Source: Bacillales bacterium UBA1709
GTDB lineage: Bacteria; Bacillota_I; Bacilli_A; RFN20; UBA1709
Direction of reading: 5' to 3'
DNA length: 64,000 nucleotides
NCBI GenBank assembly: GCA_002317215.1
Contig: DCJD01000010.1
Span: 8,486 to 72,485 of the forward strand
Shown in pieces: positions 1,085-46,669 of this stretch (position 1 is the stretch's first letter; each line of letters opens with the position of its first letter). The translations under genes and the position numbers were made by a program. Under the pieces are notes generated by a model that did not search any database, was not told the DNA's origin, and saw only the letters and a list, made by a program, of their open reading frames with translations.

Positions 1085-2239
1085 TTATAGTTCCTCCTTA
1101 TTAATAATATTTGAATTAAAATCACCATTCATAGTGTCTTTAAAGCCTTTAGAATAAACACAATTATATTTATTTAAATCTAATTCATCATTAGAATAAT
1201 ATGGTTTTAATAATAGATAATCTATTTTCACGTTATAAGTATTTTCTATCTTATTTAATAAAGTTTTTGCTTCATTATCATCATTACAATTAAATATAGC
1301 AGTTGATAATGCATCTAGAAGAGTACTAGTAGCATTACTTGAGATTAAAGATACACTTCTATATGTTGGATTAGAATAACCAGTATTAGGATTTAAAATA
1401 TGTGAGATCCATGGATTTGATTTATCATATGAGAATATATTATCAGCGCTGGTAGATATTTTATAATCTTTATCAATTTCACTAATACAAATATATTCAT
1501 CTGAATTTGGTAAATTAAATCCTATATTATATTTACCATTATCTACATAAGGGTTATTTCCTACTAGACCAATAGTAGATTCACCAAGATTAATAATAGA
1601 GGAGGTATTTAAAGATTTGATATGATTATAAATCTTCTCTCCAATATATCCTTTTCCAATTCCACCAATTGATATTATTGGTTGTACTTCGTTATATTTA
1701 TTAATTGTTATTGATCTTGTGCTATCATCAAAAACAATTATATTATCTATATCATTATAACTTACTATTCCGTTTAATATTGTGCTAATTTCAGAAGAAG
1801 TAGGCATATTAGTATTTGTTGATAAATAAGATGAATATGCATCAATTAATCTTCCAATACATACATTAAACTTACCATCTGTTATCTTGCATAATTCAAC
1901 TGATGTTTTAATTAAATCATATAAATCATTATTACAGTTATTTATATATCCGCTATCATTTAAACTCTTTAAATTCTCTATTCCATCATAATCATGATAA
2001 CGATCAAAATAATGGGACATTGTTGTAATATCATTAATAATTGTATTCTTATTTTGCTGTAGAATATTATTATCATAGAAAGTAATTTTAGAAATAGTAT
2101 TCATTGGAAAAACATATTCATCTTGAATAAACTCTCCAGGTACAGTGAAATAATATTTTTTCTTATCATTATTAGCATTATTATTTTTGCAGGAGGCCAA
2201 TAATAAGATTGATACTAATCCAATTAATTTTCTTCTCAT
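1085..2239 (-). CDS. apbE: FAD:protein FMN transferase (ApbE family) lipoprotein, copy 1
   Basis: Lipobox LLLASC. The ApbE signature is ISIGGIGKGY (compare the GGIAKGY motif of flavin transferases). Confidence 0.75.
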   Translation of the reverse strand: MRRKLIGLVSILLLASCKNNNANNDKKKYYFTVPGEFIQDEYVFPMNTISKITFYDNNILQQNKNTIINDITTMSHYFDRYHDYDGIENLKSLNDSGYINNCNNDLYDLIKTSVELCKITDGKFNVCIGRLIDAYSSYLSTNTNMPTSSEISTILNGIVSYNDIDNIIVFDDSTRSITINKYNEVQPIISIGGIGKGYIGEKIYNHIKSLNTSSIINLGESTIGLVGNNPYVDNGKYNIGFNLPNSDEYICISEIDKDYKISTSADNIFSYDKSNPWISHILNPNTGYSNPTYRSVSLISSNATSTLLDALSTAIFNCNDDNEAKTLLNKIENTYNVKIDYLLLKPYYSNDELDLNKYNCVYSKGFKDTMNGDFNSNIINKEEL

Positions 2240-2314: not shown

Positions 2315-3496
2315 TTATTGAGCTGCTTGAACTGCTGCATAAACATCAGCGTTTACACCAACGAAACCAGCTTTGCCAAATGCTTTAACATAGTTAGTTT
2401 GAGTAATTGTACAACCACTAATGTTTGTGAATGACATAGCACCGTATGAACCGTTAGTAACGTAATCTGATACAGTAACATCTTTACCTTCAACGAATTT
2501 TTCCATTGCTTCTGCTTGTTCATTCCATTCGCCACCGCCAACGATAACGCCTTTAGCAGCTGAAGTTGACTTCATACCATAAGCAGTACCTAATGCTTTC
2601 TTAGAAACATAAGCACCGTTGCTATAGTATTTAACATTTGTAACAACTGATGGAACTAATGTACTTGAATCAGTTGCATAAGTAACTACTAATGCATCGA
2701 ATTGAGCTGCAACAACTTTGTTACCTTTTAAGATAACTCCACACATATCGAATCCGACTTCTGTGCTTGGTAATCCATAGTTATAAGCAGGACCGTATTC
2801 ACAGCCTACACCAGTTGTAACTTCAGTATCTAAATCATATTTCTTAGATGCTTTGTGTTCACTAGCATATTTGATTGCTTTTACGTATTCGCCTAAGTTG
2901 ATTGTACAACCAGCTTTTAATCCAGCATCAGTTGCATAACCAGTTGCACCAACTGCTGCTTCAATTTCTGCAACAGTTTTGCCTTTACACCATGCTGAGA
3001 ATGCTTCGATTTGAGTATCTGCTTCTGCACCACCAGCGATAACGCCTTTAGCAGCTGAAGTATTCTTCATACCATAAGCATCACCTTGGTATAATTTTGA
3101 TGCTTGAGCATCTGCACTGTGAGTTTTTACACCATATACAGTTTCTTGTGTATCAATTTTATCTGCTGTACATTTGTGGTTATCAACGTGAGTTTGTGTC
3201 CAAGTAACTTGTGCACTTGTTCCTTCAACTTTACTTTGAACGCAGTCAAATCTAGCTGAAACAATTTTCTTAGTAACAGTGTTGAATGCGGCTACACAGT
3301 AAGTAACATCAACTTGTTCAGAAGCGAATGCAGGTGAATCTCCATTAGTCATGTTTGTAGCTGTTTTAGCTGAGAAACCTAAACCAATTTGCATCATTGG
3401 AGTAACTTTAGCATCTTCTTCTTTTTTACCACAACTTGCTAGTGATAAACCTAGAACTGCTGCACCAAATAATGCGACATATTTTCTAAATTTCAT
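2315..3496 (-). CDS. secreted lipoprotein with two tandem FMN-binding-like domains (PplA-like candidate flavinylation substrate)
   Basis: Signal peptide with lipobox LSLASC. There is an internal duplication: YGMKNTSAAKGVIAGG / YGMKSTSAAKGVIVGG are Gly-rich starts. Each repeat ends with LKAGCTINLGEYVKAI / NISGCTITQTNYVKAF, which resembles the D-x-x-SGAT-[IV]-TS flavinylation motif of FMN_bind domains. Confidence 0.55.
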   Translation of the reverse strand: MKFRKYVALFGAAVLGLSLASCGKKEEDAKVTPMMQIGLGFSAKTATNMTNGDSPAFASEQVDVTYCVAAFNTVTKKIVSARFDCVQSKVEGTSAQVTWTQTHVDNHKCTADKIDTQETVYGVKTHSADAQASKLYQGDAYGMKNTSAAKGVIAGGAEADTQIEAFSAWCKGKTVAEIEAAVGATGYATDAGLKAGCTINLGEYVKAIKYASEHKASKKYDLDTEVTTGVGCEYGPAYNYGLPSTEVGFDMCGVILKGNKVVAAQFDALVVTYATDSSTLVPSVVTNVKYYSNGAYVSKKALGTAYGMKSTSAAKGVIVGGGEWNEQAEAMEKFVEGKDVTVSDYVTNGSYGAMSFTNISGCTITQTNYVKAFGKAGFVGVNADVYAAVQAAQ

Positions 3497-3590: not shown

Positions 3591-4109
3591 TTATTTGATT
3601 AAAAATGCTTTATTCAATAGATTTAAGATAATAGTTGATAAGTATGCTATTAAAATACCAGATATAGTAGAAGAGATCATTAATATTGGTAAATAATTAA
3701 TCATTGATGGTAAAGAATACAATATAATAACACCAATTATTTGACCAATACTATGAAAGATAGCACTAGAGATTGATAATCCATATATACTTATTTTTTT
3801 AACGAAATAATAAATAATTAATACAAATATTGATGATAAGATATAACCTGAAAAAGATAATATTGATGCAGGACTTCCAAGACCAGTTCTTAATAATGCA
3901 ACTAGAAAAACTCTAAGAAATCCAATTAATAAATATTCTTTTGGAGAATAGAAATATAATACAGTTAATCCCATTAGATTAGCTAAACCAAGTTTTACCC
4001 CTGGAATTGGTATTGGTAAAGGAATCATTGATTCTAAAATATTCAAAACAATTCCTAATGCAAGGAACATTGATAATCTTGTTATTTTTTTAGTTTTTGA
4101 AACGTTCAT
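3591..4109 (-). CDS. Gx transporter family membrane protein (formerly annotated as heptaprenyl diphosphate synthase component I-like)
   Basis: Polytopic membrane protein with PLPIPIPGVKLGLANL motif. It is in its typical position next to the NusG-II protein and ApbE. Confidence 0.5.
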   Translation of the reverse strand: MNVSKTKKITRLSMFLALGIVLNILESMIPLPIPIPGVKLGLANLMGLTVLYFYSPKEYLLIGFLRVFLVALLRTGLGSPASILSFSGYILSSIFVLIIYYFVKKISIYGLSISSAIFHSIGQIIGVIILYSLPSMINYLPILMISSTISGILIAYLSTIILNLLNKAFLIK

Positions 4110-4113
4110 ATTC

Positions 4114-4542
4114 TTAACCTACTGATATTACATCATCTATTGATTCACTTTCGATACTAACAATTACTCCATTAGGAATGCAAACAATACTTTTACCTTT
4201 CTTTGAAATATATCCATATTTCTCGCAAGTATGATTAGGACAAGTAATATTGTGAACTCTAACTCCTTTATCAATTGATATTTCAACTGTAAAATCCCCG
4301 TATAAATCAGGGTAATCTTCCTTTTTAATAACATATACCATATCTTCTTTTAATTCATCGTAATTAATTTTAGCGATACTAGTATTTTGATATTGGATAT
4401 TAATAATTCTATCCCCATTGCTATTAGCTTTATAATTGACAATTATTATTGAAGAAACCGAAATAAGTATTGCTAATATAGCAATAAGAATATCAAATAT
4501 ATTAAACTTTAAAGAAAAATTATTTTTCATAAACACCTTCAA
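4114..4542 (-). CDS. NusG domain II-containing membrane-anchored protein
   Basis: N-terminal TM helix. Cys motif CPNHTC...C. Size and gene context (between ApbE and the Gx transporter) match this family. Confidence 0.45.
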   Translation of the reverse strand: MKVFMKNNFSLKFNIFDILIAILAILISVSSIIIVNYKANSNGDRIINIQYQNTSIAKINYDELKEDMVYVIKKEDYPDLYGDFTVEISIDKGVRVHNITCPNHTCEKYGYISKKGKSIVCIPNGVIVSIESESIDDVISVG

Positions 4543-5788
4543 TACCGTTTGCTAATTCTAAGGTATTATTAACGTTATTAGTATAATGAACTTTTAAAGA
4601 ATAATCTTTAAGATTTCCATTATTATATTTTTGAACTAAATAAAATGTATCAAATTGATAGTTTAAGTCCTTTCTTAATTTCATTCCTTCCTCAATACTC
4701 ATATTCATAAGTGCAGTTGATAAAATATCAAGATAAGCACTTGATAATGAATATGAAAGAATTGAGACAGATCTATAATAAGATTCTGGATATCCAGTAA
4801 ATGGATTAATAATGTGATGTCTATTTAAAACTAAAACTCCATCAATAACACAATAATGTTTATTAACTGTGTAGTTACCACTTGTTGAATAGTTAAACTG
4901 ATTTGAAACTTTAATGGAAAAAGCGCTCCCATCAAAACTATTTGGATCTCTTGTTTCGATACTCATTCCACCAGATTTTTTAGTATAAATTGGCTCAGAT
5001 AAACTTTCTAATGAACTTCCACCGCTAAATAATATCCCATCTTTATATCCATTATCAATTAGTTTTTGTTTAACTTTATCTGTTGCATATCCTTTTGCAA
5101 TACCACCTAAACTGATATATGGTCTATATGATGATGAATTTAAAATATTGTTAAACTTAACTGAATAGTTTTCTTCATTAAAAGTTAATTGATTATTGTA
5201 ATTTTCAAGGGTATTTGGAATAGCTGAAACAAGATTTTCCAGGCGTGTTTTAGCATCATTATTAACGTATGGGTCATAATCATAGACATCCATATAATTA
5301 TTATATGAACTGAAACACCCTTCCCAAAAATCTGTTAAACCACCTGTAAAAATATTAAACATACCATTGGTTAATGAATATGAACTATAGCAAAATTTCA
5401 GACAATCATATAAATCTTTATCAATTTGAATTTCTTCATTAGTTCCATAACTTTCATTGATTACTTTTAAATTATTAATCAAATTTCCATTTGAATCAGC
5501 ATAATAATAATGACGATCAAATAATTTGTGGAACCTAATTATTTCATCTGTATAAATATTAATAATATTGTTTTTAATTTCGTCGGCATTTTTATTTTTC
5601 TTATCAAAAAAATATCTCACAACCATTGAAGTATTAAAAGGATCAACTTGGTGTCCTATTGTACAATTTGTATCGTCATAACCAATGATTTCATCTTGAA
5701 TTGTAAATGATTGCCAAGACCCTTTTCTATCACATGATGTTAAACATAAAATCGAAATTATACTTAACAATAAAACTTTCTTTTTCAT
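4520..5788 (-). CDS. apbE: FAD:protein FMN transferase (ApbE family) lipoprotein, copy 2
   Basis: Lipobox LCLTSC. ApbE motif ISLGGIAKGYATD. Confidence 0.75.
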   Translation of the reverse strand: MKKKVLLLSIISILCLTSCDRKGSWQSFTIQDEIIGYDDTNCTIGHQVDPFNTSMVVRYFFDKKNKNADEIKNNIINIYTDEIIRFHKLFDRHYYYADSNGNLINNLKVINESYGTNEEIQIDKDLYDCLKFCYSSYSLTNGMFNIFTGGLTDFWEGCFSSYNNYMDVYDYDPYVNNDAKTRLENLVSAIPNTLENYNNQLTFNEENYSVKFNNILNSSSYRPYISLGGIAKGYATDKVKQKLIDNGYKDGILFSGGSSLESLSEPIYTKKSGGMSIETRDPNSFDGSAFSIKVSNQFNYSTSGNYTVNKHYCVIDGVLVLNRHHIINPFTGYPESYYRSVSILSYSLSSAYLDILSTALMNMSIEEGMKLRKDLNYQFDTFYLVQKYNNGNLKDYSLKVHYTNNVNNTLELANGIEGVYEK

Positions 5789-5857: not shown

Positions 5858-6184
5858 CTATTTAATATCGTTTAATACACTTCCATCAGGACCTGGTGTA
5901 GATTTTAGATATTCAATTATTTCAGCTAATTTTTCTTTCTTAAGTGGTTTACATAAAGAAACTTGTTTATTTGAACCACTAATAATAGAATCTGCCATAC
6001 CTGAACATCCAGGATATCCGCATCCGCCACAGTTTGCTCCTGGTAACATTGAAAGTAATACTTCTAATCTTGGATCAGCTTTAACTGATAAATATTTATC
6101 TGCAACTGCTAATAATAATCCAAGGAATGCTCCAATGCCAAGTGTAACTACTAACGCTTTAATAATTACAATAATTGTTTCCAT
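5858..6184 (-). CDS. rnfB: RnfB-like subunit, truncated: membrane anchor plus N-terminal 4Fe-4S (FeS) domain only, with no polyferredoxin domains
   Basis: The sequence LPGANCGGCGYPGCSGMADSIISG...C matches the RnfB N-terminal Fe-S domain pattern. At 108 aa it is far shorter than typical RnfB. Confidence 0.6.
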   Translation of the reverse strand: METIIVIIKALVVTLGIGAFLGLLLAVADKYLSVKADPRLEVLLSMLPGANCGGCGYPGCSGMADSIISGSNKQVSLCKPLKKEKLAEIIEYLKSTPGPDGSVLNDIK

Positions 6185-6185
6185 T

Positions 6186-6353
6186 TTAGTTCTCCTTTTT
6201 ATGATTAGCGCAGGACGTTATTTGACATCCCTCGCAATTTTCTGATAAATTAACGCATCCTTCTGGTTTAGGTGTTCTTTGGTTTAATACATAACTGAAT
6301 ATGAACAAACCACTACATATTCCTAAAGCCACAATGGATAATATAATTTTCAT
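6186..6353 (-). CDS. 55-aa membrane micro-protein with C-x6-C-x2-C-x4-C motif (MKIILSIVALGICSGLFIFSYVLNQRTPKPEGCVNLSENCEGCQITSCANHKKEN); not in the ORF track
   Basis: Hand-translated. Its ATG overlaps the rnfA stop (TAATG). Its 3' end carries the AAGGAG RBS and an ATG overlap for the rnfB-like gene, so it is translationally coupled on both sides. Confidence 0.5.
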   Translation of the reverse strand: MKIILSIVALGICSGLFIFSYVLNQRTPKPEGCVNLSENCEGCQITSCANHKKEN

Positions 6354-6964
6354 TACAAGCTTAATCCCATAAAGGCTGCAAATGCTAGAGCCATTAAGGA
6401 TGTTGTAATAAGAGCAATGCTGTTTCCTTTGAATGCTTCTGGAGTTTCTTTATTGCTATCAATTCTTACTCTGATGAATGAGAATAGAGTAATAACTAAC
6501 ATATAGCCAAGAGAAGTGAAGATAGCATAAACTAACATATTGATAAATGTATATTCAAATGTTATAACTCCATTTAATTCTGTGTATGCAGCAACTTTTT
6601 GTGCAACGAATAATACAACACAGTTTGTTGTAATTAAAGGTAAATAAATACCTAAAGCTTTATAAAGAGACACAAGATATTTCTTCATAAAGAATTCAAC
6701 GAATTGAACGAATGCTGCGATAACTAAGATAAATATAACTAATTGTAGGAAATCTAATCCAAGTGGAACTAAGATATATTTTTCTAAAGCGAAACATATA
6801 ATAGCACTCATAGTAACTACGAAAGTAAGTGCTAATCCCATACCAATAGCATTGCTAGGTTTTTTAGAAATACCTAAGAATGGACAAATTCCTAAGAAAT
6901 TAGAAAGAATAATATTACTTGAGAATAAACAAGCAATAATGATTGCAAATATACTCATATTCAA
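6353..6964 (-). CDS. rnfA: Rnf complex subunit A
   Basis: Motifs GICPFLG and IYLPLITTNC. Six-TM protein of RnfA/NqrE type. Confidence 0.8.
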   Translation of the reverse strand: MNMSIFAIIIACLFSSNIILSNFLGICPFLGISKKPSNAIGMGLALTFVVTMSAIICFALEKYILVPLGLDFLQLVIFILVIAAFVQFVEFFMKKYLVSLYKALGIYLPLITTNCVVLFVAQKVAAYTELNGVITFEYTFINMLVYAIFTSLGYMLVITLFSFIRVRIDSNKETPEAFKGNSIALITTSLMALAFAAFMGLSL

Positions 6965-6970
6965 TTCCTC

Positions 6971-7837
6971 CTATTTACTTTCTGCAGCTTTTGCTGCTTT
7001 TTTATTTGCGATTGCTTTTCTAGCGCCATTAAAGCCAGCAACGCAGAAACCAAGTACTAAGAAAGCACCTGATGGTTGAGCTAATAAACCAATTTCATAT
7101 GGTGAAGAGAAAGATTGATTTGCTGCGAGTTTTAATGCATCAACAACTTCTTTAGTACCATATGTTTCATCAGTAATAACTTTTAATTCTTTTGTAATCT
7201 TGCTTAGATTATAACCATTATTTGAATATTCAGAGATTAATTCTTTTAATGAATTAACATCACCAATTTTAAATTCGGTGATTAAAGCATCATAAACAAC
7301 TTTATCTTCTTTTGCTAAAGGAATAATTCTTGTAATAGAAGTAACGTTTCCTTCAAGATCTTTCATTGTGATAACACCAGTACCTAAGATTTCTCTTAAT
7401 GCAGCAACAATTGTTAATGCAAAGAAGAAACCAAGGGAGATACCAATGGCATCCATGATAGAATTTACTACACTATTTTTAGAAGCGTAGCTTTCAGCTC
7501 TTCCTAAAATAATACAGTTAACAACGATTAATTGTAGATAACTTCCTAGAGTTGTATAAATTCCAGGAGCATAAGCGTTTACGAATAATGAAACTGCTGT
7601 AACAATAGTAGCAATAATAACAATGTATACAGGAATTCTTATCTCACTAGGAGTAAATTTAGCAATTAATGAAATAGAAATATTTGACATTAATAATACT
7701 AAGAATACACAAGCACTCATACCAATAGCACTGTAAATTGAACTACTAGTTGCTAATACTGGACACATTCCAAGGAATAAGACAAATGTTGGGTTTTCAT
7801 TTATAATCCCGTTTAAAATAATTTTTAATTTTTTCAT
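6971..7837 (-). CDS. rnfE: Rnf complex subunit E with an inserted soluble domain of about 80 aa before the last TM helix
   Basis: GMCPVLA motif. RnfE/NqrD-like TM pattern. The insertion is MKDLEGNV...ANQSFSSPYE. Confidence 0.7.
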   Translation of the reverse strand: MKKLKIILNGIINENPTFVLFLGMCPVLATSSSIYSAIGMSACVFLVLLMSNISISLIAKFTPSEIRIPVYIVIIATIVTAVSLFVNAYAPGIYTTLGSYLQLIVVNCIILGRAESYASKNSVVNSIMDAIGISLGFFFALTIVAALREILGTGVITMKDLEGNVTSITRIIPLAKEDKVVYDALITEFKIGDVNSLKELISEYSNNGYNLSKITKELKVITDETYGTKEVVDALKLAANQSFSSPYEIGLLAQPSGAFLVLGFCVAGFNGARKAIANKKAAKAAESK

Positions 7838-7853
7838 ATCTTATACTCCTTTC

Positions 7854-8387
7854 CTACCATGTCATAGCCATATAGTCAGCACGACATAATTCAATAGCTT
7901 TTGCTAAAGGTTCTCCAGTAGCTGATTTTCCAGCCATAGCAGAAGTGTAAGTTGAATACTCTAGAAGTTTTGTTTGCGCGCTTAAACCACTAACAAGATC
8001 TCCCATAGATTCAATTAAATCTTTACCATATCCAGAGTCTTCGCCGTTTGCGATATCTGAATATCCAACGTATTTGTTATCTGCGAAAGCAACAACAAAT
8101 TTAATAGTATTATTTCTTCCGGAAATAGACATGTTGTAACAAGCGCCATTAACAGTTTTGTTAACAACTTTCTTTGTACATCCTTCAAAATTAGGAGTAT
8201 CAACTACTTCAAAATCTGAAGCTGATGCATTATATGCTGAGAATAATTCAACATATGCTTGATTTGATTTAGCTAATTCGTTGCTTGCAATTTTCTTTTC
8301 AGTTGATTTATAAACAACTGCTAATAATAATCCGCAAGCTCCTACTACTGTACCTAAGAATAGGGGTAATTTTAAAAACTTATTCAT
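7854..8387 (-). CDS. rnfG: Rnf complex subunit G (FMN-binding subunit, divergent)
   Basis: N-terminal TM. Its position between rnfD and rnfE. A C-terminal GKSAT motif sits where SGAT is normally found. Confidence 0.6.
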   Translation of the reverse strand: MNKFLKLPLFLGTVVGACGLLLAVVYKSTEKKIASNELAKSNQAYVELFSAYNASASDFEVVDTPNFEGCTKKVVNKTVNGACYNMSISGRNNTIKFVVAFADNKYVGYSDIANGEDSGYGKDLIESMGDLVSGLSAQTKLLEYSTYTSAMAGKSATGEPLAKAIELCRADYMAMTW

Positions 8388-8399
8388 ATTTAATTCCTC

Positions 8400-10160
8400 C
8401 TATTTACTTTCTAATGCATATAATTGATATGCTTTATTTACAAGATCTTTAATGATTTGTGGCGAGTATGTAGATTTTGAAGCAGTAGTAGCTTTACCGC
8501 AAACTAGTGCATCAACAGCAGCTTGACCATTGCCAACTACTTGTTCGCTAACAAACTTACCATAATATGAAGTATCAGTTCCAGCCATCTTTTCATCAAT
8601 GAAACCAACACCTTGAACCTTATCTTGTTTATCAATAACAACTAATCCCACTACATTTAATGGAATTGGGTATCCTTCAGCTGAGATGCTTGCTTTGCTA
8701 CCCATTGCTTTTTCATAATCAATAACGTAAGCATATGCAACTACTTCATCACCATTTTTAACAAGATATTTACTATCTAATGTAGATTCATTACTGAATG
8801 TATAACCTACTTCGACGTCATCACTATATTTGCAATATCTTTCATTTTCATTTAAAGCTACTGCTGATTGTAATTGTGCATCTTGTGCATAATTTAATCC
8901 GTCTTTATTAACGACACCAATGTGAGTTACTTGACCGCTTGCCATAAATCCTAAGCAGATTGCAGCAATAACAACACCTAATCCTAAACCAGCAACTTTA
9001 ACTGGATAGTGTCTATTTGTCTTGCCTTTAATTGCAGCATCAATAGCAGGGCTAATCAAGTTTGCTAAAGCAATTGAGAACATTGCACCTTCTGGATAAC
9101 CGCCTTTAATTCTAATTAAAACAGTCATAAATCCAGCAAATATTGCACAGATGCTCTTTCCTAAGCTTGAAGTTGGTCCAGTAACTGGATCAGTTAGCAT
9201 AAATACCGCACCAAAGGCAACGCCGCCTAAACCGATGCTAGCGACTAAATATGCTAATACGCTATTGCCAGTTAATGTAGCAATAACAACAGCTGATAAT
9301 GCAACAGTTCCTAAGTAGAATGCTGGTGTTCTCCAGTTAATAACTCCAAGAACTGATAATACAATACCTAAGCCTAAAATTAATACAGTGAATGTTTCGC
9401 CTAAAGCACCAACATATTCACCGAATAATATATTCTCTAAAGTGAAACCTTCAATTAATGAATTTTCAATAACAGCAGCACCTACAGGTCTTGTAGTGTA
9501 AATCCAAAGTTGCGAATTGTTATATACACTAGTAATTGTAGAACCTGTAGCAGCATCAACACCAACAGCAGTTGCTGCTTCGCCTGCTAATTCTGCTGCA
9601 GAAACAGTTTGGATGATTTCAGGAGTTGCTAATGCACTTCCGAAACATAATCCAACGAAAATTCTTGCCATAATTGCAGGATTAAAGATGTTTTTACCAA
9701 AACCACCAAATACATTTTTGCAAACTAATGTTGCAAATACTGAACCAACAATAATTACATAGTAGCTAGTAAATACTGGTAGAGTTAAGGCAAAAATAAT
9801 CCCGGTAATATAAGAATAGTTATGAACTATTGTATGAATGATATCTTTACCTAAAGATATATTCTTGTGTGTTTTATGAACACATAATGTATGGATAACA
9901 TCACATACAATTGAAGTAACAACAGCAACAATAACATTTAGTATTGCTTTTAATCCATAATCAACATATGGGAGTTGTTCTTCAATATCTAATTCTAAAT
10001 TTTCTAATTCAATATATTCATTAATCTTATCGGATAAATTAAAGTAATAAATAATTCCACTTACCCATACAACAACAAGTGCTGCAAGTAAGATTAACAT
10101 TATTTTTAATGTTGAATTTTTGCTTCTTTGATAAGGAGCAGGATTTGTTCTAAATGCCAT
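8400..10160 (-). CDS. rnfD: Rnf complex subunit D with a long C-terminal extension of about 200 aa
   Basis: NqrB/RnfD-like membrane core with VDAATGSTITS motif. The C-terminal extension contains VDALVCGKATTAS, which is FMN_bind-like. Confidence 0.7.
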   Translation of the reverse strand: MAFRTNPAPYQRSKNSTLKIMLILLAALVVVWVSGIIYYFNLSDKINEYIELENLELDIEEQLPYVDYGLKAILNVIVAVVTSIVCDVIHTLCVHKTHKNISLGKDIIHTIVHNYSYITGIIFALTLPVFTSYYVIIVGSVFATLVCKNVFGGFGKNIFNPAIMARIFVGLCFGSALATPEIIQTVSAAELAGEAATAVGVDAATGSTITSVYNNSQLWIYTTRPVGAAVIENSLIEGFTLENILFGEYVGALGETFTVLILGLGIVLSVLGVINWRTPAFYLGTVALSAVVIATLTGNSVLAYLVASIGLGGVAFGAVFMLTDPVTGPTSSLGKSICAIFAGFMTVLIRIKGGYPEGAMFSIALANLISPAIDAAIKGKTNRHYPVKVAGLGLGVVIAAICLGFMASGQVTHIGVVNKDGLNYAQDAQLQSAVALNENERYCKYSDDVEVGYTFSNESTLDSKYLVKNGDEVVAYAYVIDYEKAMGSKASISAEGYPIPLNVVGLVVIDKQDKVQGVGFIDEKMAGTDTSYYGKFVSEQVVGNGQAAVDALVCGKATTASKSTYSPQIIKDLVNKAYQLYALESK

Positions 10161-10174
10161 AAATTCTTTCCTCC

Positions 10175-11488
10175 TTATTTCTTAGGCATGCTAAGTTTAA
10201 CAATAGCCTTGCCTTTTTTAATTGTCTCAGTAACATCAATTTTACTTGGACAAATATAACTACACATTCCACATTCAATACAACTTAAGATGTCGTATTT
10301 TTTCATACCTTCTACATCTCTTTTTTCAGCTGCTTCTTTTAAAGCAACTGGTTGTAAATATGCTGGACAATGTGCAGTACATTTACCACATCTTAAACAT
10401 GCATCTGCTGTAGCTTGGCAATATTTTAAGACTGTGATTGATCCCATTTGCATTAACATTGGGAATGTATCAAATGATACTGCCTTTGAACACATTGGTC
10501 CACCAGGAATAAAGTTAATATCACCTTCTACTACTCCACCACAAACTTTAATTAATTCGTTTGATAGAGTACCAACAGGGATTAAAACGTTATGTGGGTT
10601 AACTATACCATTACCACTAACTGTAACTAATCTAGTTGCAACAGTCTTACCAGTTGATAAAGTTCTACCAAGTTCAATAACAGTAGTTGCATTATTAACA
10701 GCAACTTTAACTTCACTTGGTAATGTTTTATATTCCTTATGGAATATATTTCTAATTAAGACTCTTTCCCAACCCATTGGGTAAGCATCTTTTGTCTCAA
10801 CTAATCTAATATTAGGATGATCGGCTAATTTTGCTAATACAGCTTCTTTAACTTCATCTTTGTGAACCTTGATAGCAATGATAGCTTCTTTAGCACCGCT
10901 TGCTTTCATTAAGTATTCACAACCTAATAATAATTCGTCAACTCTTTGTTGCATTACGATAAAGTCAGTAGTTAAGTATGGTTCACACTCAATACCGTTA
11001 ACAAGTAATGTTTCAATTTCACTAGATCCATTATATTTAATGTAAGTTGGGAATCCAGCTCCGCCCATACCTACTAGACCAGCCTCTTTAATAGCATCTC
11101 TGATTTTTTCAGCACTATCTTTTAAAGTTACTGTCTTTAATGGTTTTTCCTCATCGTATTTACCATCATTTTCGATAACTACATGAGGGATTGCACGTCC
11201 AACTTGTGGAGAGAAAACATTTTCATTAGCAACAACTTTTCCACTTACTGAAGAGTAAATTGGAACATAGAAATCGCTTCTTAAACCAATTTTAGTTCCA
11301 ACCTTGACCTTGTCCCCTTCTTTTACATCAAATGTAATAGGTTTACCATTTGGGGCCATTGTTGGAAAATAAACTTTTTTAGGAGCATTATTTCCACTTA
11401 CTAATGAGATTATTTCTTCGTGCTTGGTTAATTCTTTGTGGCCATCAATATGTTTTTGGCCTTTTGAACTAAATAAACTCATTTTCAT
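10175..11488 (-). CDS. rnfC: Rnf complex subunit C (NADH-binding, two [4Fe-4S] clusters)
   Basis: GMGGAGFPT nucleotide-binding motif. Cluster motifs CLRCGKCTAHCP and CIECGMCSYICP. Confidence 0.85.
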   Translation of the reverse strand: MKMSLFSSKGQKHIDGHKELTKHEEIISLVSGNNAPKKVYFPTMAPNGKPITFDVKEGDKVKVGTKIGLRSDFYVPIYSSVSGKVVANENVFSPQVGRAIPHVVIENDGKYDEEKPLKTVTLKDSAEKIRDAIKEAGLVGMGGAGFPTYIKYNGSSEIETLLVNGIECEPYLTTDFIVMQQRVDELLLGCEYLMKASGAKEAIIAIKVHKDEVKEAVLAKLADHPNIRLVETKDAYPMGWERVLIRNIFHKEYKTLPSEVKVAVNNATTVIELGRTLSTGKTVATRLVTVSGNGIVNPHNVLIPVGTLSNELIKVCGGVVEGDINFIPGGPMCSKAVSFDTFPMLMQMGSITVLKYCQATADACLRCGKCTAHCPAYLQPVALKEAAEKRDVEGMKKYDILSCIECGMCSYICPSKIDVTETIKKGKAIVKLSMPKK

Positions 11489-11623: not shown

Positions 11624-12301
11624 TTAAACAATCTTTAATGTTCTTAAATAGTCTTTTTTACCTTGTTCTATTCTATTTGATTCTATAGCTTTTTGAATTG
11701 ATTTATTCTGAATCCATTTATCTAATTTTTTTGATTCTATTAGTCTAATTGTTTGATCATATTGCTTAATTAAGGCTAAAGAATAATACCATGCGATTGC
11801 AATATTGATGTAATATTCATTTGATTTAATTGTACTTAAAATATCTAAAAATTTTGGATCAAAATCTTCATCTAAAAATAGATTCATAAGACATATAATT
11901 CCAAACCTAACCGTATATGTTTTATCTGATTTTAACCACTCTAAAATATACTCTAAAATATCATCTTTATGCTTCTAAAAAACTAGTGGCATAATAGTAT
12001 CACTTGTGGCCCAATTATCAATATATGGAAGAAAGGAAATAATGCGTGATTTTGCTTCTTCATAATTCTTAATTCTTTGAATTAAGAATCCATGTATTAG
12101 ATTTTCTTCATAATATTCATGAGGTAATTCATCGAAAAAATCATCTATTTTATCCTTAGAAAATTCCTTAACTATTTCTCTTAATTTTGGTACTCTTACA
12201 CCAATGATATTTTCTAATTTATAAGTAGGTGTTAACTTACTAATAAATAACTTATATTTAGCATCAGAATACTCATATAATTTGTCTAAAATTTCTTTCA
12301 T
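11624..12301 (-). pseudogene. DNA alkylation repair protein (AlkD/HEAT-repeat family) interrupted by an in-frame TAG at 11975..11977
   Basis: ORFs 11975..12301 and 11624..11887 are in the same frame. Reading through the TAG gives one continuous AlkD-like protein of about 225 aa (...IMPLVF*KHKDDILEYILEWLKSDKTYTVRFGIICLMNLFLDEDF...). Confidence 0.6.
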
Positions 12302-12379: not shown

Positions 12380-12468
12380 TGGTGCCCGGAACGGGAATTG
12401 AACCCGTAAGGAAGTCGCCTTCCGCAGGATTTTAAGTCCTGTGCGTCTACCTATTCCGCCACCCGGGC
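12380..12468 (-). tRNA. tRNA-Leu (anticodon TAA), type II, CCA encoded
   Basis: Manual fold: acceptor gcccggg/cccgggc, anticodon loop cuUAAaa, long variable arm. Confidence 0.8.
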
Positions 12469-12476
12469 ATTAGTAA

Positions 12477-12552
12477 TGGTGACCCGCTGGAGATTCGAAC
12501 TCCAGACCCCTTGATTAAAAGTCAAGTGCTCTACCGACTGAGCTAGCGGATC
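12477..12552 (-). tRNA. tRNA-Lys (anticodon TTT)
   Basis: Manual fold: anticodon stem cttga/tcaag, loop ctTTTaa. Confidence 0.8.
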
Positions 12553-12556
12553 ATAT

Positions 12557-12632
12557 TGGCTGGGGTAGCTGGATTCGGACCAGCGGAATGCCAGAGTCAA
12601 AGTCTAGTGCCTTACCACTTGGCTATACCCCA
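12557..12632 (-). tRNA. tRNA-Gln (anticodon TTG)
   Basis: Manual fold: 76 nt, anticodon loop ctTTGac. Confidence 0.8.
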
Positions 12633-12638
12633 AGAAAA

Positions 12639-12723
12639 TGGTGGAGGAGGACAGATTTGAACTGCCGAACCCGGTGGGAAATGATTTACAGTCATCTGCG
12701 TTTGGCCTCTTCGCTACTCCTCC
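12639..12723 (-). tRNA. tRNA-Tyr (anticodon GTA), long variable arm
   Basis: Similar to Bacillus tRNA-Tyr. Anticodon loop ctGTAaa. The exact 5' end is uncertain by 1 nt. Confidence 0.7.
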
Positions 12724-12739
12724 ACGAAGCATTAATTTA

Positions 12740-12815
12740 ATGGTGGATGCTGAGGGGCTCGAACCCACGACATCCACCTTGTAAGGGTGGCGCTCTCCCA
12801 GCTGAGCTAAGCATC
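12740..12815 (-). tRNA. tRNA-Val (anticodon TAC)
   Basis: Manual fold: 76 nt, anticodon loop ctTACaa. Confidence 0.8.
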
Positions 12816-13089
12816 CATTAATATTAATGCTTTTTAATTTTAATTGATAAATTATTATTAGTCAATAAATAAATCAAAAAGGACACTAAACAATCAATTT
12901 ATTTGTTTTGGCATTTAAGCTAATCTTAAATCACTTAGATATGATATACCTTTTTGAATTATATGTTAATAGAAAAAGCAAAATATAATCAAATCTTATA
13001 TATTTTCAATACACTGATAGTGGTTGTCGTAGCAAAGGCTAATTTTTACATATATATAAATAAATTTATAAGAAAATTCATAAAATAGT

Positions 13090-13260: not shown

Positions 13261-13572
13261 ATGGCAGAAAAGCAAAGAATTAGGATTAAACTTAAAGCTT
13301 TCGATCATAAGATACTAGATGATAGTGCTCAAAAGATTGTTGAAGCAGCAAAGAAATCCGGGGCTAAAGTTGTAGGCCCAGTACCACTTCCAACCGAGAA
13401 GCAAGTATATACACTATTAAGAGCTGTTCATAAATACAAGGACGCTCGTGAGCAATTTGAAATTAGAACTCACAAAAGATTAATCGATATCGTAGACTTA
13501 CAACCAACTACAGTTAATCAATTAACTAATTTGGTTTTACCAAGTGGTGTTGATATCGAAATCAAATTATAA
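13261..13572 (+). CDS. rpsJ: 30S ribosomal protein S10
   Basis: Conserved sequence. First gene of the S10 operon. Confidence 0.95.
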
Positions 13573-45716: not shown

Positions 45717-45792
45717 TGGTGGCCCAGGCCGGGAGCGCGCCGGCGACACTCAGATTTTCAGTCTGATGCTCTACTGACTGAGCTACCGGGCC
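45717..45792 (-). tRNA. tRNA-Phe (anticodon GAA) with a non-canonical GC-rich T-loop
   Basis: Manual fold: acceptor, D-arm and anticodon arm are canonical (ctGAAaa). The T-arm reads gccgg-cgcgctc-ccggc instead of the TTCGAnT pattern. Confidence 0.65.
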
Positions 45793-45813
45793 AAGAACAA
45801 TAAACAATAAGAA

Positions 45814-45889
45814 TGGCGGTCCCGACGAGGCTCGAACTCGCGATCTCCTCCGTGACAGGGAGGCATGTTAGCCACTACACCACAAGACC
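45814..45889 (-). tRNA. tRNA-Asp (anticodon GTC)
   Basis: Manual fold: 76 nt, loop ctGTCac. Confidence 0.8.
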
Positions 45890-45894
45890 GTTTT

Positions 45895-45970
45895 TGGTTG
45901 CGGAGGTAGGACTCGGACCTACGACCTCCAGGTTATGGGCCTGACGAGCTGCCAACTGCTCTACTCCGCG
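45895..45970 (-). tRNA. initiator tRNA-fMet (anticodon CAT)
   Basis: C1:A72 mismatch. Near-identical arms to Bacillus tRNA-fMet. Confidence 0.8.
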
Positions 45971-46003
45971 ATATAGAAATAAAAATGCGCCTTAATAAAA
46001 TAA

Positions 46004-46094
46004 TGGCGGAGGCGGAGGGATTCGAACTCTCGCTAGCGTCGCCACTACTGCCGGTTTTCAAGACCAGTCCCTTCAGCCACTTGGGTACGCCTCC
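46004..46094 (-). tRNA. tRNA-Ser (anticodon TGA), type II
   Basis: Manual fold: 91 nt, loop ctTGAaa, long variable arm. Confidence 0.8.
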
Positions 46095-46109
46095 GTAATT
46101 ATATAGGGT

Positions 46110-46185
46110 TGGTGGACCCTGAAGGACTCGAACCTTCAACCGACCGGTTATGAGCCGGGAGCTCTGACCATTGCGCTAAGGGTCC
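46110..46185 (-). tRNA. tRNA-Ile2 (anticodon CAT, lysidine-type) – an elongator Met cannot be excluded
   Basis: CAT anticodon. Strongly resembles Bacillus tRNA-Ile(LAU) (GGACCCTTAGC...CTCATAACC...). Confidence 0.6.
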
Positions 46186-46192
46186 AAGTAAA

Positions 46193-46269
46193 TGGTGGCG
46201 GCAATGAGATTCGAACTCATGACCGTTCGGGTATGAACCGAGTGCTCTAGCCAACTGAGCTACACCGCC
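46193..46269 (-). tRNA. elongator tRNA-Met (anticodon CAT)
   Basis: Resembles Bacillus elongator tRNA-Met (GGCGGTGTAGCTCAG...TTCATACCC). Confidence 0.75.
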
Positions 46270-46291
46270 AATTAATACTTAATAATTTTTA

Positions 46292-46367
46292 TGGTGGAGC
46301 TGACGAGGATCGAACTCGCTACCTCCTGAATGCAAATCAGGCGCTCTCCCAGGTGAGCTACAGCCCC
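46292..46367 (-). tRNA. tRNA-Ala (anticodon TGC)
   Basis: G3:U70 identity pair. Loop ttTGCat. Confidence 0.8.
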
Positions 46368-46375
46368 ATAAAAAG

Positions 46376-46452
46376 TGGTCGGGATGACAGGATTTGAACC
46401 TGCGACACCCTGGTCCCAAACCAGGTGCACTACCAAGCTGTGCAACATCCCG
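46376..46452 (-). tRNA. tRNA-Pro (anticodon TGG)
   Basis: Manual fold: 77 nt, loop ttTGGga. Confidence 0.8.
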
Positions 46453-46462
46453 ATATTAAACT

Positions 46463-46539
46463 TGGCGCGCCCAGCAGGAGTCGAACCCGCAACCTTTGGA
46501 TTCGTAGTCCAACACTCTATCCAGTTGAGCTATAGGCGC
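46463..46539 (-). tRNA. tRNA-Arg (anticodon ACG)
   Basis: Manual fold: 77 nt, loop ctACGaa. Confidence 0.8.
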
Positions 46540-46595
46540 TTGCTCAACTATTTTACCAAACTATTGAATATTATTCAATAATTTTAAATGGTAAT

Positions 46596-46669
46596 TGGAG
46601 GTTCCTGCCGGGGTCGAACCGGCGCTCACTGAGTTGCAGTCAATTGCCTTACCACTTGGCTAAGGAACC
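46596..46669 (-). tRNA. tRNA-Cys (anticodon GCA)
   Basis: Manual fold: anticodon stem attga/tcagt, loop ctGCAac, discriminator U. Confidence 0.7.

Follow-up and report, generated by a model that had tools for sequence, protein, structure and literature searches.

What has been added to the C-terminus of an RnfD subunit that is much longer than usual, and does the added part carry another flavin? This question is raised by a 64,000-nucleotide stretch of DNA from Bacillales bacterium UBA1709 (assembly GCA_002317215.1, contig DCJD01000010.1, positions 8,486 to 72,485), referred to here in its whole length as the window, which has a G+C content of ~30% and contains an rnf operon with an exceptionally long rnfD. 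In anaerobes, the redox pump Rnf has a central part in energy conservation, and the known electron path through this pump includes, to our knowledge, exactly two flavins outside the membrane, of which RnfG carries one and RnfD the other. A first-pass annotation of this DNA had proposed that the extension of RnfD resembles an RnfG/NqrC-type FMN_bind domain, that is, a domain of the kind that carries flavin mononucleotide (FMN), fused in cis. The analysis described below indicates that the extension is a diverged but complete RnfG-like unit, consisting of a linker, an 11th transmembrane helix, an alpha/beta FMN_bind domain and a long terminal helix.

The long rnfD gene and its membrane core

The long rnfD, which encodes an RnfD core followed by an extra transmembrane helix and an RnfG-like domain, occupies positions 8400..10160 of the minus strand, stop codon included, and is read without interruption from an ATG start to a TAG stop as a protein of 586 amino acids (aa). 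It is the second gene of an rnfC-D-G-E-A-B operon. A gene of this length might be an artefact of sequencing or assembly that fused rnfD with the gene that follows it, and nothing was found in favor of this explanation. Two independent public assemblies, one represented by a JGI contig of 74.6 kb and the other by a Logan contig, encode the identical 586-aa protein, and rnfG begins 12 bases past the stop codon of the long rnfD. Relatives were sampled as the 120 nearest database relatives of the full-length protein, the 66 closest of which were aligned separately. The protein is 520-959 aa long in 110 of the 120 (386-455 aa in the remaining 10), more than 100 relatives have the same architecture, and query coverage is 99-100% for most of the 66 closest. 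Because the protein is identical on two assemblies, and because most of its relatives are long and most of the closest ones cover nearly all of it, a missed stop codon, a frameshift and a chimeric assembly are excluded, and an artefact has already been refuted to the point of having practically no probability left. The length that the first-pass annotation had called unusual for an RnfD is therefore genuine, and the separate gene joined by a missed stop or frameshift, which it had named as the alternative, is not what the assemblies and relatives reveal.

The first 380 aa (9021..10160, minus strand) form the RnfD/NqrB membrane core, with a Pfam PF03116 match of 213 bits over aa 6-380 that spans profile positions 3-293 of 296. 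The rnfD model TIGR01946 scores 162.3 bits and does not reach its trusted cutoff of 207.05, yet RnfD stays the best-matching family; judged by its sequence, this score below the cutoff marks the long RnfD of the window as a divergent RnfD subfamily. The flavin-attachment-like motif VDAATGSTITS that had been pointed out in the core spans aa 201-211 and represents the canonical flavinylation motif of RnfD, D202-A-A-T-G-S-T208 (9537..9557, minus strand), with T208 as the attachment residue. It was read directly from the sequence, and its column is conserved in the closest 66 relatives. A regular-expression search gave the impression that many distant relatives have lost this core motif, an idea that was dropped when alignment showed the Thr retained in variants such as AGAT, SSAT, and GGVT.

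The extension is a complete RnfG-like unit

Beyond the core lies a domain at aa 412-586 (8403..8927, minus strand), predicted to be extracytoplasmic, which was identified as RnfG-like by profile comparison, AlphaFold2 modelling, Foldseek, hhalign, and HMMER. Pfam FMN_bind (PF04205) matches aa 503-579 (8424..8654, minus strand) with E = 0.0022 and covers profile positions 6-77 of 77. The test for FMN_bind that had been recommended for this region thus gave a mixed outcome, as the alignment spans the profile and two orthologs pass the cutoff at the same region with 35.9 and 35.5 bits, whereas the window copy, at 19 bits, stays below it.

A profile built from an alignment of 29 extensions (A1, the window protein and 28 relatives) was compared to the Protein Data Bank (PDB). 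It matched the RnfG chain of A. woodii (9eri_G; E = 2.5e-4, 24.3 bits), with profile positions 6-200 lying on chain positions 12-204 and the anchor helix included, the RnfG chain of C. tetanomorphum (7zc6_G; E = 5.6e-4), and the single FMN domain 8p2b_A (E = 2e-3). The AlphaFold2 model of the extension computed from the A1 alignment (predicted local distance difference test, pLDDT, 81.4; predicted template-modelling score, pTM, 0.74) consists of a transmembrane helix, a beta-rich domain, and a long C-terminal helix. When this model was compared to the PDB by Foldseek, only 9eri_G and 7zc6_G were returned at a probability of 1.00, with template-modelling scores of 0.45-0.50, and the next match had E = 0.18.

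An exhaustive HMMER search of 1.84 billion representatives with the extension profile gave 829 matches at E<=1e-3. Among these, the only matches to the full profile were the C-termini of RnfD proteins or fragments of such proteins. In the remaining large proteins, profile positions 110-200 match 3-11 times per protein, and the four large multi-match proteins that were scanned each contain 2-6 Pfam FMN_bind domains. A search with the extension alone against an index of 5.8 billion proteins returned no match, not even the query protein, which is a limit of the word index and not evidence of absence.

The relationship to the RnfG of the same clade is remote. When the extension was compared directly by BLASTP with the RnfG of its own operon, no significant similarity emerged (E = 0.71), whereas hhalign of the extension profile against the clade's own RnfG family gave E = 1.9e-4, so that the homology is visible at the profile level alone. 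The most economical origin would be a duplication of the adjacent rnfG with one copy joined to rnfD. The orthologs above the Pfam cutoff, the profile matches to solved RnfG chains, the Foldseek result, and the HMMER search together bear out the proposal of an RnfG/NqrC-type domain fused in cis; homology to FMN_bind, the absence of which had been named as a reason to abandon that proposal, was found at the level of both profile and fold. The proposal was too narrow in one respect, as the fusion comprises the whole RnfG-like unit, anchor helix and domain, rather than the soluble domain alone.

An additional membrane helix and the predicted location of the domain

The core is followed by a short basic linker, GKTNRHYPVK (aa 379-388; 8997..9026, minus strand), assigned to the cytoplasm by the positive-inside rule, and by the extra, 11th transmembrane helix (aa 389-411; 8928..8996, minus strand), the equivalent of the N-terminal anchor helix of RnfG. 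The helix was recognized by hydropathy (aa 389-411 are strongly hydrophobic, with a Kyte-Doolittle value of 2.41), by the AlphaFold2 model, which has a helix at extension residues 3-25, and by the family profile, which aligns this segment onto the RnfG anchor helix in 9eri_G. A hydrophobic segment lies 7-13 residues past the RnfD core in each of the 120 nearest relatives. Of 118 relatives, 114 have more Lys and Arg residues on the N-terminal side of the helix than on its C-terminal side, and the reverse was found in none (means of 3.2 and 1.2). The extension of one relative contains a bacterial surface immunoglobulin (Ig)-like domain. RnfD ends on the cytoplasmic side in the Rnf structure of C. 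tetanomorphum, with its last 10 residues resting on RnfC (PMC9588780). Since the canonical C-terminus is cytoplasmic and a single additional transmembrane helix comes after it, aa 412-586 are predicted, with good support, to be extracytosolic. The earlier suggestion that the extension may lie outside the cytosol is in keeping with this prediction. That annotation had also described a soluble extension placed directly after the core; the soluble domain exists, and the membrane helix that precedes it had been overlooked.

A predicted flavin site at T564

The predicted flavinylation motif of the fused domain is S561-K-S-T564-Y-S-P (8460..8480, with the T564 codon at 8469-8471, minus strand), as defined by alignment with orthologs and solved RnfG. 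It lies within the string VDALVCGKATTASKSTYSP that had been quoted in the first-pass annotation and that corresponds to aa 549-567. In multiple alignments as well as in HMMER and hhalign comparisons, the counterpart of T564 is the Thr of the ortholog motif SG(A/S)T and of the AITG(A/S)TITS motif in solved RnfG, and by the end points of the Pfam matches, T564 of the window protein and T565 of an ortholog fall on the same profile position. The column is occupied in 83 relatives and holds Thr in 71 and Ser in 12, and most full-length relatives end with a helix start of the form G/x-x-T-(Y/F/V)-(S/T). In the AlphaFold2 model, T564 stands two residues before the terminal helix, and Thr164 of C. tetanomorphum RnfG is similarly placed at its terminal helix (PMC9588780). 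A second potential covalent flavin site on the same subunit, as had been suggested, is supported by this invariant Thr/Ser, although at a different residue from the one proposed. The threonine of GKATT does not align with the flavinylated Thr. It belongs to a loop insertion of 8 residues, VCGKATTA (aa 553-560; 8481..8504, minus strand), with a pLDDT of about 55. Most of the 28 relatives in the alignment have gaps or incomplete occupancy in these columns, and the GKATT threonine was rejected as the conserved flavin site on these grounds. An additional, organism-specific flavin site at this Thr is possible.

Compared to the ApbE recognition motif D-x-x-[S/T]-G-A-[S/T], the window protein retains the terminal Thr and the Ser at -3. 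Several points weigh against a flavin at this position. The window domain is the most diverged of its family, and its PF04205 score of 19.0 bits lies under the 22-bit gathering cutoff. Its motif reads T-A-S-K-S-T564, with Lys in place of Gly at -2, Ser in place of Ala, and no Asp at -6, and in a model substrate, Gly-to-Ala and Ala-to-Val changes each roughly halve flavinylation (PMC12052999). A Thr or Ser at the N-terminus of a helix could, moreover, be conserved for structure alone. On the other side, the Asp of the motif is described as dispensable in the same review of ApbE (PMC12052999), and the residue at -2 is other than Gly in about half of the clade (TSAT, SSAT, GNCT, SKST). Because other members also do without this Gly, the ApbE enzymes of the clade probably tolerate motif variants.

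These observations also bear on whether the domain is, in this organism, a remnant that holds no FMN and only caps RnfD on its outer face, for structure or protection. A flavin-free domain would account for a score under the Pfam cutoff where orthologs exceed it, for the bulky Lys of SKST at the Gly position with an 8-residue insertion before it, and for the replacement by MA of the family loop NT, which aligns with the ETPGLG loop of RnfG. It fits less well with the retention of the Thr, of the Y-S-x-x-I-I-K helix start, and of the fold, with the frequency of residues other than Gly at -2 elsewhere in the clade, and with the two ApbE genes that the cluster keeps. We consider such a flavin-free cap unlikely. 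Flavinylation of T564 is plausible, and as a prediction from alignment and motif it is moderately favored.

The separate RnfG is retained

The operon also contains a separate rnfG (7854..8387, minus strand) for a protein of 177 aa, in which the predicted flavinylation residue is S155 within AGKSATG (codon 7923-7925). A Pfam scan of this protein gave no FMN_bind match and its TIGR01947 match is weak, while its orthologs do reach the Pfam FMN_bind threshold. It was considered whether the protein could be a lipoprotein, given a lipobox-like match; this was ruled out, as the Cys lies in the middle of a hydrophobic helix, as in solved helix-anchored RnfG chains.

The poor domain matches of the separate RnfG, together with a Ser instead of the Thr in its AGKS motif, could mean that the two proteins have exchanged roles, the fused module being the working RnfG and the 177-aa protein doing another task. 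This is very unlikely. The separate RnfG family is nearer to solved RnfG than the fused module is, with E = 1e-12 and 51.6 bits for its profile (A2) against 7zc6_G, compared to E = 2.5e-4 and 24.3 bits for the best match of A1. In all 10 operons examined, its predicted flavin column holds T or S, and the ETxGYG loop is kept. In each of these operons, the separate rnfG encodes a protein of 177-197 aa and stands in its canonical place in the order C-D-G-E-A-B. Since the separate rnfG is kept in all ten, the fused module is an addition to RnfG and not a replacement of it.

Distribution and divergence in the clade

The long-RnfD architecture is present in every full-length member of the clade, the sources being uncultured gut Bacilli, and the relatives in reference genomes come from uncultured Firmicutes, Erysipelotrichaceae, and Bacillales metagenome-assembled genomes. 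The fusion is therefore not peculiar to this gene, being shared across the clade. Database entries for these relatives read RnfABCDGE type electron transport complex subunit D [Bacilli bacterium], with nothing more specific. Ten distinct operons share a recurring set of genes, namely rnfC, long rnfD, rnfG, rnfE, rnfA, a Cys-rich open-reading frame (ORF), a short rnfB, and genes for ApbE, a NusG_II protein, and a PF07456 protein.

Among relatives, identity to the window protein is 16-27% for the extension and 31-45% for RnfG, the extension evolving faster than RnfG. Its length ranges from about 190 to 620 aa. Some relatives (P0118, P0090, P0116) have much longer extensions, with RnfD proteins of 748-959 aa in total, and in one the terminal FMN_bind domain is preceded by a surface Ig-like domain, which suggests that the outside module is open to elaboration in some members of the clade.

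Other subunits encoded in the operon

The remaining subunit genes lie on the minus strand as well. The NADH/FMN and 2x[4Fe-4S] subunit is encoded by rnfC (10175..11488; Pfam RnfC_N, Complex1_51K, and Fer4), and both rnfE (6971..7837, 288 aa; Pfam and NCBIfam) and rnfA (6353..6964; Pfam) were identified. The window RnfE has an insertion of ~90 aa (roughly aa 160-250) between its conserved halves, its relatives being 214-261 aa long, and this insertion is largely specific to the window organism.

The rnfB gene (5858..6184) is minimal, encoding 108 aa with a transmembrane helix and one [4Fe-4S] FeS domain, and matches PF04060 only. RnfB proteins of related operons are likewise 104-109 aa long with a transmembrane helix and a single-cluster PF04060 domain, so that the polyferredoxin domain is missing throughout the clade. 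In RnfB, the C-terminal domain normally holds 2-7 [4Fe-4S] clusters and is the ferredoxin acceptor (PMC12174285). Between rnfA and rnfB, all related operons have a small Cys-rich ORF (50-68 aa, PEGC-x5-7-C-x2-C-x4-C-x-H). The copy in the window (6186..6353) encodes 55 aa with an N-terminal transmembrane helix, a basic stretch, and the Cys-rich tail PEGC-x7-C-x2-C-x4-C-x-H, and no family match was found for it in Pfam or NCBIfam. It may encode an additional small subunit that binds a metal or a cluster. A possible likeness to the small ORF after feoB in another locus (L012) was judged by eye, and the two are unlike.

Flavin-handling neighbors and a two-domain lipoprotein

Genes associated with covalent flavins follow the operon on the same strand. 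Two of these encode lipoprotein ApbE flavin transferases, one at 4520..5788 (lipobox LTSC; PF02424, 107 bits) and the other at 1085..2239 (PF02424, 116 bits). In the former, ~100 aa at the N-terminus lie beyond the Pfam match. Given the unusual motifs nearby (SKST, AGKS, AGCT), the two enzymes may differ in the target motif that they prefer. Between the two lie genes for a NusG_II membrane protein (4114..4542; PF07009), which is probably equivalent to EetA, and for an EetB-like S-component (3591..4109; PF07456, 111 bits) of an energy-coupling factor (ECF) transporter, from the family that exports flavin adenine dinucleotide (FAD). PF07456 corresponds to EetB, an FAD-exporting ECF S-component often found with apbE and rnf, and synteny of eetA and eetB has been reported (PMC9973259). 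The occurrence of a NusG_II and PF07456 pair inside an rnf-apbE cluster fits this known association of eetA-eetB with Rnf.

The same cluster encodes a lipoprotein of 393 aa (2315..3496) with two repeated domains and the flavinylation-like motifs AGCT (2900-2911) and SGCT (2405-2416). Its internal duplication is supported by E = 1e-14, and each half contains, across the family, a near-invariant D-x-D-L-K-A-G-C-T-I. Neither Pfam nor NCBIfam has a match for this family. Its profile matched 2kzx_A in the PDB with E = 3.4e-8, and the motif aligned on DAISGATI. Proteins of the family (330-390 aa) adjoin 8 of the 10 long-rnfD operons, whereas two control loci, whose RnfD is ordinary, both lack such a neighbor. 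Paired FMN-bind2 proteins have been described from an Erysipelotrichaceae bacterium (PMC11334425), and the lipoprotein is probably a two-domain protein of the FMN-bind2 type, putatively carrying two flavins.

Proposed role of the fused domain

The best explanation of these findings, to which we would give an even chance, is that the fused domain serves as an extra flavin relay outside the cell, tethered beside RnfD, with the putative diflavin lipoprotein as its candidate partner. With FAD supplied by the EetB-like exporter, an ApbE would attach FMN to T564, and the fused domain would be on the same side of the membrane as the FMN of RnfG, the FMN of RnfD at T208, and the lipoprotein ApbE transferases. 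The complex would then carry three covalent flavins on its outer face. The third flavin would exchange electrons with the FMN of RnfG or of RnfD and would give electrons to, or take them from, an outside partner, for which the two-domain lipoprotein of the same cluster is the best candidate. The least certain part is this relay as a whole, in which the third flavin would stand outside the obligatory path from RnfAE through RnfG to RnfD. A second outward electron path has been proposed for Rnf complexes with multi-flavinylated RnfG (PMC8238504).

The strength of this proposal is lessened by the following points. In 2 of the 10 long-rnfD operons, the flanks that were retrieved contain no copy of the lipoprotein. 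Its flavin binding is putative, the evidence being one sequence-profile match and the resemblance of its motifs, and a Foldseek comparison of its model to the PDB gave no significant match. The ten operons all come from one clade, and the co-occurrences in them are not independent events.

One alternative keeps the third flavin within the main path. The fused FMN would lie between the FMN of RnfG and that of RnfD, or would act as a second shuttle between RnfAE and RnfD, thereby shortening or replacing the swing of RnfG, and no outside partner would be involved. Canonical RnfG moves between positions at 29 A and 8 A to link RnfAE and RnfD (PMC9588780), and a second flavin tethered beside RnfD could bridge that gap. 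A module that is universal in the clade, with an invariant Thr/Ser, would be expected of such a component, and the two operons with no lipoprotein nearby pose no difficulty for it. The extension is, however, much less conserved than RnfG and the RnfD core, its three-fold variation in length and its Ig-like and other extra domains are unusual for a tightly coupled ion-pumping path, and canonical Rnf functions without any such module. An in-line role is thus possible but doubtful. A peripheral role of the fused domain as an outside relay is favored because RnfG is always kept, and because the module evolves faster, varies three-fold in length, and has acquired surface domains.

A broader interpretation, which we offer as speculation held with low confidence, is that uncultured gut Bacilli with reduced genomes may have a rewired subtype of Rnf, with the long RnfD as one of its hallmarks. 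Such a subtype would have lost the ferredoxin-docking domain of RnfB and gained a small Cys-rich subunit in the membrane, a third covalent flavin that sits outside on RnfD, and a diflavin lipoprotein of its own. It might work as a quinone-independent wire that connects cytoplasmic NADH, via RnfC and RnfD, with acceptors or donors outside the cell, and no longer mainly as a closed ferredoxin:NAD+ loop. The third flavin domain, the short RnfB, and the usual presence of the lipoprotein do point to a different use of the Rnf scaffold in some gut Bacilli, perhaps for quinone-free electron transfer to or from the cell surface. If this is true, gut bacteria would have a new, quinone-independent route of extracellular electron transfer (EET), more membrane machines would be known to feed flavin-based EET, and the annotation as subunit D would need to be changed. 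The clade would also be a natural test case for drift of the ApbE recognition motif (SKST, TSAT, GNCT, AGCT). If the domain is merely an in-line relay or a cap, the long RnfD would be a modest structural variant.

Other features of the window

Upstream of rnfC, at 11624-12301 (minus strand), are two adjacent short ORFs of 108 aa (PF08713, DNA_alkylation) and 87 aa that look like a single DNA-alkylation-repair gene split by a stop codon or frameshift, and the same split is present on the JGI contig. Five tRNA genes lie directly upstream of the rnf operon at 12383-12816 (minus strand) and a further cluster of eleven at 45720-46669 (minus strand). At 13261, where the sign of the GC skew changes, the ribosomal-protein S10 operon begins on the opposite strand.

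Comparison with known systems

All parts of the system are of known kinds, namely RnfD, the RnfG/FMN_bind domain, ApbE, and EetB, and PF03116 combined with PF04205 can already be seen in precomputed domain tables. A search for an RnfD-RnfG-like (RnfD-FMN_bind) fusion found no account of one in the survey of Meheust et al. (PMC8238504), its 2024 follow-up, the supplements of these papers, the Rnf structure paper, a 2025 RNF/NQR review, or targeted full-text literature searches, and the same body of literature gave no description of an RnfB that has no docking domain. The RnfD fusions that have been described are only those with a cytosolic NqrF-type domain (PMC8238504, PMC11334425).

A close counterpart of the long RnfD is canonical RnfD, such as the 33-kDa protein of C. 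tetanomorphum, which has the same PF03116 core, a flavinylated Thr in [S/T]G[A/S]T, and a gene that follows rnfC. Its C-terminus consists of ~10 cytoplasmic residues bound to RnfC, whereas the window protein goes on with a helix and a 175-aa domain predicted to lie outside. The two-subunit NQR/RNF-like systems (PMC8238504, PMC11334425) also have an RnfD-family core with a C-terminal fusion and flavinylation genes. In those systems, however, the fusion is a cytosolic NAD-binding PF00175 domain, the flavinylation Thr of the core is absent, and there is no RnfC, A, E, or B, while the window system has an outside FMN_bind fusion, keeps the core Thr, and includes the full rnfCDGEAB, and its long RnfD gives no PF00175 match.

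RnfG/NqrC proteins (7ZC6 chain G, 9ERI chain G) have in common with the fused module an N-terminal anchor helix, a beta-rich domain, a long C-terminal helix, a Thr or Ser at the N-terminus of that helix in [S/T]-x-x-[T/S], a location outside the cell (predicted for the fused module), and expected ApbE-dependent flavinylation. They differ in being separate polypeptides. Canonical RnfG is anchored in the helix bundle of RnfA, RnfE, and RnfB, whereas the window module, because it is covalently attached to the C-terminus of RnfD, is anchored beside RnfD. It is also extra to a normal RnfG, has low similarity to RnfG (E about 1e-4), and carries the motif SKST. Systems with multi-flavinylated RnfG (Meheust et al. 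2021, eLife, PMC8238504) are alike in having more outside FMN_bind domains than canonical Rnf; there the repeats are within RnfG, whereas here the additional domain is on RnfD and the 177-aa RnfG has a single domain.

The Listeria EET locus (PplA, FmnB/ApbE, EetA, EetB) resembles the window cluster in its lipoprotein with two flavinylation sites (putative ones in the window), its ApbE-type transferase, and its EetB-family PF07456 exporter with an EetA-like neighbor. The lipoproteins differ, as PplA has Pfam FMN_bind, whereas the window lipoprotein belongs to an unannotated family that is probably of the FMN-bind2 type. The machinery in the membrane differs as well, since electrons are transferred in Listeria by Ndh2 and demethylmenaquinone, whereas the only membrane redox machine of the window cluster is Rnf.

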